Made by a program: the position numbers and the translations under genes. Shown here in pieces: positions 3,279 to 53,214 of a DNA stretch of 64,000 nt. Source of the stretch: a virus. Each line of letters starts with the position of its first letter. Positions within the stretch are counted from its first letter, which is position 1. The notes below the pieces were generated by a model. That model was not told where the DNA came from and did not search any database. It was given only the letters and a program-made list of their open reading frames with translations. The stretch lies in IMG/VR virus record IMGVR_UViG_3300002026_000029, positions 26,796-90,795 of that record; one strand, written 5' to 3'.

Positions 3279-3571
3279 TTTTTAGCACTTAATGTATTAA
3301 ACAACGATATTACTTGTGTAAGTGTTAATAGTTCTTGTGCATCATCTAAATCAATGTCACCAGTTAGAAGTTTATCTAATGTAGTGTGTATAATAAACTC
3401 TAACTTCTCTGTTATTGTACCTTCTAGTACTAGATCTTCTGATACAGTATCTATATGATTATCACTAGCCGCATCTGTGTTTAGGCGCTCAGTGTTGAAT
3501 AGTTTTGATAGCAACTCTCTAAAGGCTACGTCTGATTTTGTTTGTGTTTCTTTGAATGCCATTATAGTCAT
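3269..3571 (-). CDS. Hypothetical protein
   Basis: 100-aa ORF overlapping the next gene in the run. Confidence 0.55.
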   Translation of the reverse strand: MTIMAFKETQTKSDVAFRELLSKLFNTERLNTDAASDNHIDTVSEDLVLEGTITEKLEFIIHTTLDKLLTGDIDLDDAQELLTLTQVISLFNTLSAKKCE

Positions 3572-3576
3572 TCTCC

Positions 3577-3903
3577 TTATTCAAATAGTCGATCAAACCT
3601 AGCAAATATATCACTAGGTTGTTGGGAAGCAGTAGTATTACCATTAGCAGTGCTAGTGGTAGGTGACTCACCTTCCAAGATTTGTAATTTAATTGGATAC
3701 CATATAAGGTATAAGCTGATTAGTGTTGAACCGGCGGTAGCACTTACTACTCCTAGTATAGTCCCACCGAAAAATATGTTTAGTATGAACAGTAGACCTA
3801 AGTCTACAACTACATCTATATAATTTCCACGGTTCCACTTTATCCGTACTATAATAAACTGAAAGAGTACGGCTAGTCCTAGAAGTACTACCATTATTCC
3901 CAT
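3577..3903 (-). CDS. Membrane protein (about 3 TM segments)
   Basis: Three hydrophobic stretches then a polar tail. Confidence 0.6.
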   Translation of the reverse strand: MGIMVVLLGLAVLFQFIIVRIKWNRGNYIDVVVDLGLLFILNIFFGGTILGVVSATAGSTLISLYLIWYPIKLQILEGESPTTSTANGNTTASQQPSDIFARFDRLFE

Positions 3904-40443: not shown

Positions 40444-40704
40444 TTATAAGTCTTCAATCTGTATTAGTTCACGTTCTGCTGTAAGATCAGTGATAATACA
40501 TGAGAAGCGTTCGTTGTTAAGTATTTGTGGTAAGAATTCATTAGCCTGAGCAAATGTAATATCTACTACACTATTTGCACCACAAACTTTACGTGCGAAG
40601 TCATCTACAGGGTGAAACCAGCCAACCATTGCACCAGTTTTATTTGACACGATACGTGCAGCGAATTGATTCTTACTTACAGATTGTTGTTGATTAAATG
40701 CCAT
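40444..40704 (-). CDS. Small early protein, paralog family with 44808-45062 and 45250-45501 (possibly N4 gp2-like ssDNA-binding cofactor)
   Basis: MAF...ARIVS.KTG..V.W..P...TD.T.....IEDL. Confidence 0.55.
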   Translation of the reverse strand: MAFNQQQSVSKNQFAARIVSNKTGAMVGWFHPVDDFARKVCGANSVVDITFAQANEFLPQILNNERFSCIITDLTAERELIQIEDL

Positions 40705-41005: not shown

Positions 41006-41241
41006 TAACGTACACGCACACTATGTACATTACCGATTAGGATAAGGAGTAGCTTTTGGACAATTCCTTGGACAGGATTAAGTACCCATGTTTTATTATC
41101 AAAGGCATATGGAACTGTACGACGCATAGTTGACGTGTACCATCTACCCCATAACATGAAGGTAGTTACTCGTTGACGAGGCTCAAATAGTATCTTACCA
41201 TCTATATATGCATCAATAGCTTCATTTTGTGTTAGGTTCAT
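41005..41241 (-). CDS. Hypothetical protein
   Basis: Small ORF with RBS. Confidence 0.5.
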   Translation of the reverse strand: MNLTQNEAIDAYIDGKILFEPRQRVTTFMLWGRWYTSTMRRTVPYAFDNKTWVLNPVQGIVQKLLLILIGNVHSVRVR

Positions 41242-41663
41242 TGTATTCCTTTATGGTTTAATGGTGGGTAATAACCAGCTCCCTTGCCGGCAACTCTGTG
41301 GGTGACCTCATGACATTTTTTACAGAGAGTACAGAGTGCTTCTGCTTTTTCATTTCCGAGGGTATTGTAATGGATGTGATGAACTTCACAGTCATCAGGA
41401 CTACCACACATACGGCATTGGTGTTTATCTCTGTGGAGAGTAATCAGTCTATTAGGATTATTATACCACTGGACACTACGAATGTATTTGTTGTAGTCTA
41501 TTACTGATACAACCTTTGTTGGTAGTACCCATAGTCTTATAGCTGTTACAAGATCTGATATAGACTTAGTGGGTGTAAATATAGGATTACGAGGTCCTAT
41601 ATCATCGTCAGCAGTTAATACTAAGTAGAGTATAAGCCCTACTACAACTAGTATTACCCACAT
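41238..41663 (-). CDS. HNH endonuclease with N-terminal hydrophobic segment
   Basis: CRMCG....EVHHIHY...G.E....L.TLCKKCH...H. Confidence 0.8.
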   Translation of the reverse strand: MWVILVVVGLILYLVLTADDDIGPRNPIFTPTKSISDLVTAIRLWVLPTKVVSVIDYNKYIRSVQWYNNPNRLITLHRDKHQCRMCGSPDDCEVHHIHYNTLGNEKAEALCTLCKKCHEVTHRVAGKGAGYYPPLNHKGIQ

Positions 41664-42114: not shown

Positions 42115-42273
42115 ATATTACCCGCAATATTTAATCAAAGTTTTATTAATTAAATTGCTTAGTAACATATCATATAACTAGCAATACTACCCGCAACACT
42201 TAATTAAAGCTTTAACCATTTTACATTGTTCAATAGATTACATATATTGTCCATAACATTTAATCAAAGCTTT
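42115..42273 (-). promoter_or_regulatory. Three imperfect 30-bp direct repeats, probable tandem promoters or operators
   Basis: 42115-42144, 42184-42213, 42244-42273; located after terminators and before the middle genes. Confidence 0.5.
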
Positions 42274-42335
42274 CAAATATAGCGAATAGTAATACTAAAA
42301 TAAAAGAGCCTACGAATTAGGCTATCCATTTTAGT

Positions 42336-42365
42336 AAAAAAAAAATAAAGTAGCCCGAAGGCCAC
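42336..42365 (-). terminator. Rho-independent terminator after the RNAP genes
   Basis: GTGGCC-TTCG-GGCTAC hairpin followed by TTTATTTTTTTTTT. Confidence 0.85.
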
Positions 42366-42371
42366 ATAAGA

Positions 42372-43133
42372 TTAACAAATTGCATAGCTGGAAGTAGTTA
42401 ATCCTTTGATAAATTGTTTGTTATCAATGTTGAAGTTCTTATTACAGAATTGTTCAAGGGAACGACTGTTTGAGATTTGCGCAAGACCGTCTAAGAATAG
42501 TTCTCTTACAACTCTCATATTATTTGGGTGACATTGAATATCGTCGTGAATGTGGGCTACTTGGAATGGAGCTTTATCAATTATATTCCTGATTAAGAAT
42601 CCATCGTGTGCGTGTACAAAGTTTGCTACTAGTGGAGTATATACATCTGATGGTGTATTGCTTTCAAAGCGATATGGAAGGTTTAAGCCTTCATTATCTA
42701 GGATACCGTCAATATGCTTAGTTACTTGTATGCGTGCAATGTGCCCGTCTGGAGTAGAGAACTCGTGGTAGAGTGCTGTATTATCCCAACGTTCGTTTAT
42801 TGCTTGCATAACATTAGCAGCACCTGGAAATAAGTCTGTGATGGTATCATAGAAAGCTTGTAGCTCTTGAGTATCTTTGCCAAAGGCATTGATAGGTTCT
42901 TGTCTACTATTGTAGAAGTATGTCATTAGAGGTTGTTTGCAATACGCACGTACTTCTTTGAATGTCATAGAGGCGAATATAGTTGATGTAGGAACTTTCT
43001 GTAGCATTGTTTGTGCTACTAACGAATATGGGTCAGCACGTAGAGTAGTCTCGATATAGTTATCTGGATTACTCTTTAGCTGTCTAATTTCAGCAAGGAT
43101 TTGTGATTTAGTTCTAGTAGTTTTTCGTGTCAT
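42372..43133 (-). CDS. T7/N4-type RNA polymerase II, part 3 (motifs B and C)
   Basis: RADPY, RAYCKQPLMTYFY (motif B), TPDG, ANFVHAHDG, HIHDDIQCHPN (motif C). Confidence 0.9.
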   Translation of the reverse strand: MTRKTTRTKSQILAEIRQLKSNPDNYIETTLRADPYSLVAQTMLQKVPTSTIFASMTFKEVRAYCKQPLMTYFYNSRQEPINAFGKDTQELQAFYDTITDLFPGAANVMQAINERWDNTALYHEFSTPDGHIARIQVTKHIDGILDNEGLNLPYRFESNTPSDVYTPLVANFVHAHDGFLIRNIIDKAPFQVAHIHDDIQCHPNNMRVVRELFLDGLAQISNSRSLEQFCNKNFNIDNKQFIKGLTTSSYAIC

Positions 43134-43147
43134 TAGTATTCCTTATG

Positions 43148-43351
43148 TCATTTAAATAAGCTAAAAGTTATATATCTGTTTGCACTGCATCTATTCTGTC
43201 GTTGTGTAATGCTAGTCCTATTTGGGTGGTATTGAATATCGTCGTGGATGTAGGCTACTTTGAATGGAGCCTTATCAATTATATTCCTGATTAATAATCC
43301 GTCGTATGCGTGTACAAAGTGTACTACTGGTGGAGTAGTTATTCGTGTCAT
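43148..43351 (-). pseudogene. Internally deleted duplicate of RNAP part 3 (RBS/start fused to the motif C region)
   Basis: 43219-43337 matches 42521-42639 (12 mismatches in 119 bp); RBS/start 43342-43364 is identical to 43124-43146. Confidence 0.7.
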
Positions 43352-43384
43352 TAGTATTCCTTATTTAGTTGTGGGTTGGCACTA

Positions 43385-44203
43385 TTATAGTGCGGAGAGT
43401 TCTGCTTTTAATGCAGATAGTCTAGCGTTAGCTTCGTCTGTGTATTCTCTGTGAATGTATGCATTAACATTACAGTTTTTAGCTGTTATTGGGCAACCAC
43501 TCATAGCACTCATACACTGAATTCCTGAGGCTGTGGAGTCTAGGCCAACGTTGTGCCCTATGGGGTTTCCAAGGACAACTCCTTCGTACCACGCAAACAT
43601 TGCTTTGATGAAGAGTTCAGGCTCACTTGCTGTTTTTGCAATGATACTTATGTGGTCTTCTAAGCTGTCTCTAGAAACTTCTGGTGTGAATACTAAGGCT
43701 ATTATTTTGTTAGCTTCATTAATTCGTTTTACCCATATCTCTTTGTCGTAACCTAATTGGTTAGCAATATCTACTTTGAGGTAGAACTTGCCTTCGTCCG
43801 TTAGGAGTTCTTTGTCGTGGAAGTTGAGCATTGCTTTACGGTAAGCATTAGCTTGAGGATTGACGTGGTAGCCTTGTGAGTACATACGTCCACGACTATC
43901 GTACTTCCAACCAAACCAAAATTGGTTACCGTTTTCTAGTAGATAGTCTATGACATCATCAGTTTCTTTTGTACGGAGTATGAATGATTTAATTCGTTCC
44001 TGTTCGTTCAGTGCTGATAGTGGTTCTGTAGTTGGTTTAAGCACATCTGATATTAGGTGTAGTATATCAGTATTAATACTCCAAGAGATTGATTGGAGTT
44101 TGTTTATAGCTGATATATTGATGTATTGACCAACATCATTACCACGACCTAGTATTAAACTATCTTTATCTTTTGTCAGTAAGTGTGACGTAACTCTCTT
44201 CAT
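43385..44203 (-). CDS. T7/N4-type RNA polymerase II, part 2 (DxRGR and motif A)
   Basis: YDSRGRMYSQGYHVNPQ, YLKVDIANQLGYDK, LDSTASGIQ; AGGAG RBS. Confidence 0.9.
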   Translation of the reverse strand: MKRVTSHLLTKDKDSLILGRGNDVGQYINISAINKLQSISWSINTDILHLISDVLKPTTEPLSALNEQERIKSFILRTKETDDVIDYLLENGNQFWFGWKYDSRGRMYSQGYHVNPQANAYRKAMLNFHDKELLTDEGKFYLKVDIANQLGYDKEIWVKRINEANKIIALVFTPEVSRDSLEDHISIIAKTASEPELFIKAMFAWYEGVVLGNPIGHNVGLDSTASGIQCMSAMSGCPITAKNCNVNAYIHREYTDEANARLSALKAELSAL

Positions 44204-44808
44204 TATTTTCTCCTAGGTGCAAATGATAGTGGTTGGACTAACATAGGTGGTAGATATTGGGTGAATTTAATTCGCTTGTATAGCGATAGTGATACACTCA
44301 TAGTTGGTACTATTACAGCAGAGTCTCCGTGAACGGTGATGTGTCCTTGATTTACAGTACGATCTTCTTCCCGTACTATACGAACAGTGTATATACCTAG
44401 GTCATTGAAATGAGCTAGGAGTTCTATACCTGTTTGTACTGCGTCTATTTGGTCGTGGTGTAGTGCTAGTCCTATTTGGGTAGCTACAGCTTGGATAGGT
44501 GCAACTCCTGCATAAGCTACTTCCTTACCTCCACGTATTACTAGTGTTGGTTTTATGAGGATAATGGCTGCTAGTAGGGAGTTTACTAAAAGTACTTTAG
44601 CGTCTTCTAGTCCATAGTACATAGCAATCTCTTCTACTCGTGCTTTTGATGCAAGGTCACTTCGTTCCATTGTGAGGAATAGTTCAGCTCTAGCTAGTAC
44701 TAGTTCTATATCAGAACTTTTTATACTTGCTATTTCATCATATACCCAACTGAGGATATTATGCTTTCCTTTAACAGATTCTGTTAATAATTGTGTAGTA
44801 TAGCTCAT
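44203..44808 (-). CDS. T7/N4-type RNA polymerase II, part 1 (N-terminal region)
   Basis: Ends QYLPPMLVQP, the conserved PMxxxP motif of N4 gp15/T7 RNAP; TAATG-coupled to part 2. Confidence 0.7.
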   Translation of the reverse strand: MSYTTQLLTESVKGKHNILSWVYDEIASIKSSDIELVLARAELFLTMERSDLASKARVEEIAMYYGLEDAKVLLVNSLLAAIILIKPTLVIRGGKEVAYAGVAPIQAVATQIGLALHHDQIDAVQTGIELLAHFNDLGIYTVRIVREEDRTVNQGHITVHGDSAVIVPTMSVSLSLYKRIKFTQYLPPMLVQPLSFAPRRK

Positions 44809-45062
44809 TACAAATCCTCTATTGATATAGTTGTTGGAGCAACTGTTGTGTCAGTTACTATTAGTTCAAAGTATTCGTTTTCGATATTCTTGTAATAGTA
44901 GCGAGCTTCTTCTGCTGTGAGGTCTATTACTTTTTTACCAAATACTTTGGATACACCTGCTTCTATAGGGTTTAACCACGTTAAGGCTGTACCTGTCTTA
45001 CGTGAAACTAAGCGTGCTACAAACATAGCTTTATTTTTAACTTGTGTTGATTCAAATGCCAT
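44808..45062 (-). CDS. Small early protein, paralog of 40444-40704
   Basis: MAF...ARLVSRKTG...W..P...TDTT.....IEDL. Confidence 0.6.
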   Translation of the reverse strand: MAFESTQVKNKAMFVARLVSRKTGTALTWLNPIEAGVSKVFGKKVIDLTAEEARYYYKNIENEYFELIVTDTTVAPTTISIEDL

Positions 45063-45249: not shown

Positions 45250-45501
45250 TTAGAAGTCTTCTGGAGATAGTCTAGTGGTAGGTGTAGTCTCCGACACTTC
45301 TAGGATAAGGCTTTTGATATATGTCTCAAAGTCACCTTTGTTTAAGCTTTGTATATCAGCCATAGTGATGTATTCTGGTTGCTTACCTATCATTGTTTCA
45401 GTGAACTGTGATGATAGGTTAATGTATGCTACTGTATTACCCTTAGAAGTTTTAAGGGTAATAGAGTATAACTTTTGTGCTTTAGTTGTTTTGTTGAACA
45501 T
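45250..45501 (-). CDS. Small early protein, diverged paralog of 40444-40704
   Basis: SITLKTSKGNTVAYIN...IT...SETT.....PEDF. Confidence 0.5.
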   Translation of the reverse strand: MFNKTTKAQKLYSITLKTSKGNTVAYINLSSQFTETMIGKQPEYITMADIQSLNKGDFETYIKSLILEVSETTPTTRLSPEDF

Positions 45502-53140: not shown

Positions 53141-53214
53141 TATGCTATCGTCTAATGACAAGACATCAGGATTTAGTCTTGAAGATCTAGGTTCAAATCC
53201 TAGTAGCATATCCA
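53141..53214 (+). tRNA. tRNA with TTA anticodon (ochre-suppressor type, Gln-like body; may be a pseudogene)
   Basis: TATGCTA/TAGCATA acceptor, GTCT/AGAC D-stem, TCAGG-ATTTAGT-CTTGA anticodon arm, CTAGG-TTCAAAT-CCTAG T-arm, T-CCA end. Confidence 0.75.

Follow-up and report, generated by a model that had tools for sequence, protein, structure and literature searches.

Known split polymerases and the locus

RNA polymerases (RNAPs) of the T7 type are textbook single-subunit enzymes, and the one known natural heterodimer is RNAPII of phage N4, made of gp15 and gp16 (PMC4496689). T7 RNAP has been engineered to function when divided into three or four fragments (Segall-Shapiro et al. 2014, PMC4299498), and antiparallel SynZIPs at a split in the fingers region raise its activity more than tenfold (PMC4299498). 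A review remarks in passing on two species with gp16 in two genes (PMC4496689). Pseudomonas phage ZC08 has an HNH gene inside RNAP2 (PMC5418858), and homing-endonuclease insertion has been proposed as the source of split phage RNAPs, with Aeh1 and Twort cited as cases of gene splitting by homing endonucleases (PMC5418858). The locus described here lies in the window, a 64,000-nucleotide (nt) stretch of a metagenome-derived IMG/VR virus record (IMGVR_UViG_3300002026_000029; 90.8 kb, ~77% complete). The minus strand of the window carries three neighbouring open reading frames (ORFs), which are parts 1, 2 and 3 of a T7/N4-type single-subunit RNAP.

A natural three-polypeptide RNAP of the single-subunit type, with split points other than that of N4, is strongly supported by alignment and by conservation among relatives. 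Taken as a whole, the region probably encodes a T7/N4-type ('RNAPII-like') RNAP made as three co-transcribed, separately initiated polypeptides, with a tether between two of them and an origin of the split proposed alongside. The features of the locus are as follows, in window coordinates.

44808..44203 (-), part 1: 201 amino acids (aa), RNAP N-terminal domain, ending in PMLVQPLSFAPRRK
44210..44214 (-), AGGAG ribosome-binding site (RBS) of part 2, read from the sequence
44203..43385 (-), part 2: 272 aa, thumb/palm half; contains YDSRGR (T/DxxGR-like), motif A and the N4 gp15/gp16 junction, which is uninterrupted
43781..43804 (-), equivalent of the N4 gp15/gp16 break: LTDEGKFY, part 2 residues ~134-141, before YLKVDIAN; continuous
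43517..43543 (-), motif A, LDSTASGIQ: the first catalytic Asp, D222 of part 2, corresponds to T7 D537 in the T7 RNAP alignment
43388..43456 (-), C-terminal extension of part 2: residues 250-272, with a predicted acidic helix at 256-271
43133..42372 (-), part 3: 253 aa, fingers and remaining palm, with motifs B and C and the C terminus ...SSYAIC
43041..43133 (-), N-terminal extension of part 3: residues 1-31, with a predicted basic helix at 9-21, NxDNY and a linker to RADPY
42912..42950 (-), motif B, RAYCKQPLMTYFY: R62/K66/Y74 invariant in 22 sequences; aligned to N4 gp16 and T7
42540..42554 (-), motif C, HIHDD: the second catalytic Asp, D197 of part 3, corresponds to T7 D812; aligns with IHDSFG of T7
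42307..42365 (-), two terminator-like hairpins with T-runs, directly 3' of part 3 (consensus scan only)

The TAA of part 1 (44205-44203) and the ATG of part 2 (44203-44201) overlap by base 44203 to give TAATG, and parts 2 and 3 are set apart by a 251-nt spacer that is absent from the text of an earlier, preliminary description of this DNA. The consensus scan found no minus-strand terminator-like sites between the three ORFs, which suggests that parts 1-3 share one operon. The preliminary description had seen three RNAP ORFs with the N4 junction fused, one cut right after PMLVQP (with the AGGAG site and TAATG coupling, both of which can be read directly) and another between motifs A and B that puts the catalytic aspartates on two polypeptides. 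ORF coordinates, homology and motif positions agree with it on each of these points.

Homology to N4 RNAPII, T7 RNAP and single-chain relatives

Parts 1 and 2 match the same profile, phrog_2166 'N4-like RNA polymerase', at positions 19-181 (E-value, E, 3e-7) and 189-429 (E 8e-49), respectively, and part 3 matches phrog_2051 'RNA polymerase' (E 1e-39). The Pfam family PF00940 is found in part 2 at 23.2 bits (cut-off 22). Part 3 of the window alone has no Pfam match, which counts against the assignment; among its relatives, the L005 orthologue of part 3 reaches PF00940 with 33.6 bits, and many clade members carry this family. The AlphaFold2 model of part 3 has a mean predicted local distance difference test (pLDDT) value of 85. 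At the nucleotide level, blastn against phage records gave nothing beyond 72-81-nt matches to Vibrio N4-like phages, and a scan of viral contigs using part 2 alone gave no matches.

Aligned to N4 gp15 plus gp16 and to T7 RNAP, as the preliminary description had proposed, the three parts prove collinear and in order. Residues 147-268 of N4 gp15 correspond to part 2 residues 15-134 (E 3e-20), and residues 9-102 of gp16 to part 2 residues 141-249 (E 4e-17). Because both alignments fall within part 2, the N4 junction is uninterrupted there, and the position of the N4-type break is continuous in part 2 of 29/29 aligned sequences. The remainder of gp16 (residues 111-371) aligns with part 3 from residue 32 onwards (E 2e-8). 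Profile comparison with the N4 RNAPII structure 6DT7 gives the same picture, part 2 matching chain A (E 5e-26) and chain B (E 2e-17) and part 3 matching chain B (E 1.7e-21). Against T7 RNAP, the part 2 profile covers residues 374-566 (E 8.5e-18), with the conserved core stopping at residue 566, and the part 3 profile covers residues 725-848 (E 6e-4). Break 2 thus lies near T7 residue 566, or N4 gp16 residues ~101-110, where the palm passes to the fingers.

Single-chain relatives of 593-608 aa are collinear with parts 1-3. In the 593-aa relative, residues 82-161 align to part 1 residues 104-197 (E 3e-8); the part 1-like segment runs to residue 161 and the part 2-like segment begins at 174, collinear and nearly abutting, so break 1 is a clean cut without added residues. 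The sequence matches, together with motifs A (Dx3SG), B (Rx3Kx7Y) and C (HD), place the enzyme in the T7-like single-subunit family. It departs from that family in that its catalytic unit is encoded by three ORFs and not as one polypeptide, and it lacks the break before YLKIDIAN that defines the N4-type two-subunit form, even as it is homologous to both gp15 and gp16. With motif A in part 2 and motifs B and C in part 3, the catalytic aspartates sit on separate polypeptides.

By homology and conservation, parts 1-3 would assemble non-covalently as one catalytic unit, with the metal-binding aspartates contributed by two chains. The break after PMLVQP is presumably held by the native domain interface.

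Conservation of the three-part layout

The three-ORF layout recurs with the same break points in 10 other loci from viral and metagenome collections, wherever the contig reaches; eight of them span all three parts and two short contigs span some. The preliminary description had pointed to split points in related contigs as a check, and they agree. Part 1 is 60-71% identical across nine related loci. A protein search space of 5.8 billion proteins yielded ~30 clusters for part 3 (50-65% identity, nearly all ~249 aa), which begin M-(K/R)-R-T-K-x-Q-I-L-A-E-I-R, and ~30 clusters for part 2 (268-288 aa); the identity range for the clusters of both parts is 49-66%. D222/S226/G227 of part 2 are invariant in 29 sequences and H196/D197 of part 3 in 22. 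Mean column identity within the clade is 65-67%, and the pieces are kept under purifying selection.

The spacing between the parts is far less constant. Break 1 ranges from a 1-nt overlap to 898 nt and break 2 from 1 nt to 958 nt, and the frame relations between the parts differ by locus. Each ORF has its own RBS that is kept across the clade. The layout is also that of two relatives whose genomes, 102 and 118 kb long, are complete and bear terminal repeats. For annotation, RNAP fragments of ~250 aa in the large genomes of marine and microbial-mat phages are best read as subunits and not as pseudogenes.

In a tree of the region equivalent to part 3, the 22 split sequences form one clade with a long stem (Shimodaira-Hasegawa-like approximate likelihood ratio test, SH-aLRT, 100). 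Its neighbours are N4-type and single-chain forms with interspersed labels, and the sister grouping is weakly supported. The layout probably arose once, in the ancestor of a clade of uncultured phages of ~100-118 kb. Because the N4-type and single-chain labels are interspersed, the tree does not settle the order of splitting and fusing. The term 'relocated split points' used in the preliminary description is fair wording, with re-fusion of the N4 junction and independent splits both compatible with the tree.

Charged tails at break 2

In N4, 8 residues lead from ...NVVNY to RRDAY; in the clade, 23 residues end part 2 and 31 open part 3, and the gain at break 2 is about 52 residues. The distance from motif A to RxDxY is 23-30 aa in 77 continuous relatives, taken from a HMMER scan across all 1.84 billion representatives, versus 76 aa here with the two chains summed. 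The extensions are found in 0/77 of these continuous relatives. A continuous ORF with the same helices inside it, which the preliminary description had named as evidence against a clasp, is thus not among them. Nor were fused forms of part 3 seen among the longer proteins searched, which is weak evidence.

The tails are conserved at the level of the catalytic core. Column conservation is 0.55-0.57 in the part 2 tail and 0.60 in the core (29 sequences), and 0.67 in the part 3 head versus 0.59 in its core. The last 22 residues of part 2 carry a mean net charge of -3.9 (range -6 to -1, 29 sequences) and the part 3 head a mean of +3.6 (range +2 to +5). Single-chain AlphaFold2 models with alignments predict a helix at residues 256-271 of part 2 (block-mean pLDDT 82-91) and another at residues 9-21 of part 3 (block means 67-82). 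Hydrophobic residues that are invariant or nearly so follow a 3-4-3 spacing in both helices: L262/L265/L269/L272 in part 2, and I12, I16 and L19, plus L13, in part 3. Among the tail positions, L265/L269 of part 2 and I12/L13/I16/R17 of part 3 are invariant. The predicted helices accordingly show the a/d hydrophobic spacing and the complementary charge of a coiled coil. The preliminary description had quoted both tail sequences exactly and had described a strand and a helix in each; the helices are predicted, and the strands do not appear in the single-chain models, which leaves the beta-ribbon half of its proposed clasp unsupported.

The extensions are likely to stabilise the complex of parts 2 and 3. 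The most likely role of the tails is a short antiparallel acid/base helix pair that would tether the two halves; alternatively, they may be arms that each grip the partner chain. Any pairing of the helices would be antiparallel, because both spring from adjacent points of the parent fold. A specific antiparallel two-helix clasp is roughly an even call. In the sub-lineage of L006 and L055, the last Leu of part 2 is changed to Ala and the Gln preceding I12 of part 3 to Ile, which may be a compensating pair in antiparallel register; this is a single event and only a hint.

Several observations weigh against a clasp. The helices comprise about two heptads each (13-16 residues), which is short for a stable zipper and less than the several heptads usual for a coiled coil, so that a long zipper is not supported. 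Hydrophobic moments were not significantly better than those of shuffled sequences (z 0.9 and -0.2); this test is uninformative here because charged residues flank the core. In this phage the part 2 tail is less acidic than in any other member of the family (net -1 to -2), and it has K266 where 28/29 sequences have E. Complex prediction with the tails alone (part 2 residues 228-272 and part 3 residues 1-45, with alignments) gave a score of 0.13, with the mark at 0.32, and speaks neither for nor against pairing.

A bolder extension of the tether is that the acidic and basic helices evolved as a module for heterodimerisation, with part 3 a detachable sigma-like subunit and assembly of the active site across the chains a regulated step of transcription. 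This is rather unlikely; if true, the detachable part 3 would be nature's equivalent of the synthetic 'resource allocator', a split T7 RNAP.

It is also unlikely that the three-piece RNAP works through its native palm/fingers interface while the tails are mere translated leftovers of the splitting element, which supply a stop and a start. Break 1 works, by the argument above, without added residues; N4 gp15/gp16 and the engineered T7 fragments assemble without zippers (PMC4496689, PMC4299498); and the shortness of the helices and the non-significant amphipathicity test suit leftovers as well. However, the tails are conserved at core level at 49-66% overall identity, with invariant Leu/Ile and the acid/base asymmetry kept, whereas neutral remnants would decay like the patchwork in the spacer of this phage (see below).

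A quite improbable variant is that the tails are functional and bind another partner, such as a cofactor (a single-stranded DNA-binding protein like N4 gp2/Drc, or one of the ~85-aa paralogues around the operon), nucleic acid or the membrane. N4 RNAPII depends on cofactors and associates with the membrane (PMC4496689), directly upstream of part 1 both here and in relatives lies a conserved gene of ~85 aa, and the basic head of part 3 could touch nucleic acid. The tails nevertheless occur exactly and only at the chain break, always both together and with opposite charge.

Separate chains versus joined or broken frames

That RNA or protein splicing, frameshifting or stop-codon suppression joins the ORFs to leave only one or two chains is highly improbable. 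The gene does carry group I introns in relatives, the genome has a tRNA with a UUA anticodon, and the last bases of part 1 read A-AAA-TAA, part 2 lying in the -1 frame. However, positions 42200-45000 of the window have no Rfam match, even at E<=1, and in L005 a single nucleotide separates the part 2 stop from the part 3 start, leaving no room for an intron; for these reasons the parts are not joined by splicing. The tails are conserved as protein, the frames and spacer lengths vary, and the frame of part 2 is closed upstream of its start in L003, L005, L006 and L052. A second in-frame stop stands behind part 1 (TAA-TGA) and part 2 (TAA-TAG).

Three specific forms of joining were considered. 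The different frames of the parts and the tandem stops after parts 1 and 2 rule out a non-standard genetic code as well as suppression of UAA by the UUA tRNA. A -1 frameshift between parts 1 and 2 is conceivable at A-AAA-TAA in this phage but is not conserved in relatives. A split intein is ruled out by the size of the tails (23 + 31 aa), which is far below that of split inteins, and by the missing intein nucleophile residues. The natural three-part enzyme of the preliminary description is strongly supported, with ORFs, RBSs and catalytic residues kept across a monophyletic clade and no intron, frame or code to join them.

A broken gene, whether a pseudogene or the metagenomic assembly error that the preliminary description had allowed for, is barely credible: the record is an incomplete metagenome-derived contig and the spacer holds plainly decayed gene fragments, but the same break points occur in 11 loci from different samples, ~30 clusters per part have intact catalytic motifs, and the two complete relatives share the layout. 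A Logan contig from the probable source run is identical throughout 2.6 kb. The same microbial-mat study has a second sample, in which six short contigs match part 3, the spacer and most of part 2 without a difference. Given the same layout in relatives and the identical independent contigs, an assembly error or pseudogene is excluded for practical purposes.

Mobile elements and a proposed origin of the split

Mobile elements target the RNAP gene in this clade. L055 has a 251-aa HNH_3 (and AP2-like) ORF between parts 1 and 2 (E 1.6e-14), and in L004 the gap between parts 2 and 3 holds a GIY-YIG-like ORF, also of 251 aa. In L003, a 372-nt group I intron (3470-3841, 69 bits) lies within the codons of motif A, DATASG|LQ, and its removal in silico gives back a 269-aa part 2. 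L055 has a group I intron at about 2390-2971 (78 bits), at a different site of part 2, YSQG|YH. The two introns are homologous (77.6% identity over 241 nt), which suggests movement of a group I intron between sites within one gene. In L006 (3714-3977) and L055 (3402-3665), a conserved 87-aa ORF (phrog_17589) fills the spacer between parts 2 and 3. In the window, the break 2 spacer has a patchwork relic in place of an endonuclease gene, and the breaks of other relatives are near-empty.

Aeh1 nrdA is said to be divided by mobE, and the gp43 DNA polymerase is reportedly split in T4-related phages. An origin of the split here by the mobile-element 'genes in pieces' route fits the sequences of the clade, and it agrees with the published proposal for split phage RNAPs (PMC5418858); insertion of a free-standing homing endonuclease or an intron that has since decayed would be the most plausible event. 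Two points count against this origin. The GIY-YIG assignment in L004 is under the Pfam cut-off (19.5 vs 22.6 bits), and homing endonuclease genes favour intergenic gaps anyway, so that their presence at the breaks may follow the split. For the latter reason, cause and consequence are inseparable here.

The spacer relic of this phage is made up as follows.

43144..43364 (-), patchwork relic: three diverged stretches copied from the gene itself and joined as a mosaic
43334-43364, patchwork piece: 97% identical to the beginning of part 3 with its RBS, start codon and first codons
43219-43337, patchwork piece: copy of the FVHAHDG...HIHDD segment of part 3, 90%
43144-43227, patchwork piece: copy of a part 1 segment, 85%
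43351..43148 (-), ORF through the patchwork, 67 aa

The pieces meet at 3-9-nt overlaps (microhomologies). The changes in them are mostly nonsynonymous (8 nonsynonymous/3 synonymous in one piece, 7/5 in another), include a stop codon and have a neutral-looking pattern, and the 67-aa ORF is probably non-functional. The patchwork sequence is present in the second sample too. No comparable patchwork occurs in the relatives, where it is absent from all but this phage among the 11 loci, and a clade-wide feature is ruled out by the lack of a similar spacer in them. Capture from another phage's allele is likewise ruled out, as every piece is nearest to this phage's own gene. We read the patchwork as a decaying scar of microhomology-mediated template switching in break repair. 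The break 2 spacer of this phage would then retain only a non-functional scar, built from the gene's own segments at microhomologies.

Other endonuclease-like genes lie near the operon. A 141-aa ORF two genes downstream of part 3 (41238..41663, -) has an HNH endonuclease-like C-terminal half; it matches phrog_119 (E 5e-10), and Pfam HNH is below threshold. In L005, a 146-aa ORF upstream of the operon (L005:1539-1979) has a GIY-YIG-like signature (GIYKLYKGKTVVFIGYS) and no significant family match.

Neighbouring genes

Paralogues of ~85 aa surround the RNAP operon, at 44808..45062, 45250..45501 and 40444..40704 (-) in the window, and also at L003:1877-2137 and L005:2073-2333. They have no family match. 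One of them is directly upstream of part 1 here, as is always so in relatives, and these proteins are candidate polymerase cofactors.

ARAGORN calls a single tRNA in the window, at 53141-53214 (+). It has the anticodon TTA and is a potential suppressor of UAA and, by wobble, of UAG.

Comparison with known systems

N4 RNAPII (PDB 6DT7/6DT8/6DTA) belongs to the same minimal T7-like family, and it too is naturally split, held together non-covalently and encoded by adjacent early/middle genes. It has one break, before YLKIDIAN, whereas in the clade described here that site is continuous and there are two other breaks. Motifs A, B and C are on one chain in N4, and here motif A is apart from B and C. 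The 8-residue linker of N4 has as its counterpart ~54 residues in the form of two charged predicted helices. The genomes of the clade are about 100-118 kb. Schitoviruses have a giant virion RNAP; searched with 1200 aa of the one from ZC08, this record (77% complete) and two relatives gave no match. The same query gave only weak matches (E 3.6e-4), in a 1944-aa ORF of the complete 118-kb relative, L134/L135 (G002:C1:88987-90813, -), where the similarity is to the polymerase part of the schitovirus protein.

The engineered T7 RNAP with SynZIP 17/18 resembles this enzyme in that co-expressed fragments reassemble and an antiparallel helix pair at a break in the fingers raises the affinity between them. 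Its C-terminal fragment bears motifs B and C and the promoter-specificity region, like part 3. That system is man-made, split at residue 601 and equipped with designed zippers of ~40 residues; the one here is natural, split at about T7 residue 566, with putative helices of 13-16 residues. By analogy, the tails may be the natural counterpart of antiparallel SynZIP zippers. For synthetic biology, the enzyme could offer split sites already optimised by nature, and with them a compact tether, for use in split-polymerase sensors and circuits.

The 'genes in pieces' described for other phages are essential enzymes cut into separate ORFs at an endonuclease site, with the pieces under selection; among the relatives of this locus, an HNH gene lies at break 1 of L055 and a GIY-YIG-like ORF at break 2 of L004. 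The split here differs in being old and fixed in the clade with or without an endonuclease, and in having two breaks, one of them with conserved complementary extensions. It may be a dated example of a gene fragmented by a mobile element ('gene in pieces'), after which charged tails apparently evolved as compensation at the break. A clade of three-chain enzymes with the catalytic aspartates apart also shows the natural tolerance of this fold to fragmentation.

Among the split precedents, the RNAP2 of ZC08 is interrupted near the 3' end, after about residue 337, and retains the N4-type gp15/gp16 break. Neither of the two papers that report such precedents (PMC4496689 and PMC5418858) mentions breaks at these positions, a conserved clade or helices at the termini. 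New here are two non-N4 breaks kept throughout a conserved clade, an active site spread across chains, and conserved, charge-complementary terminal helices confined to the split forms.

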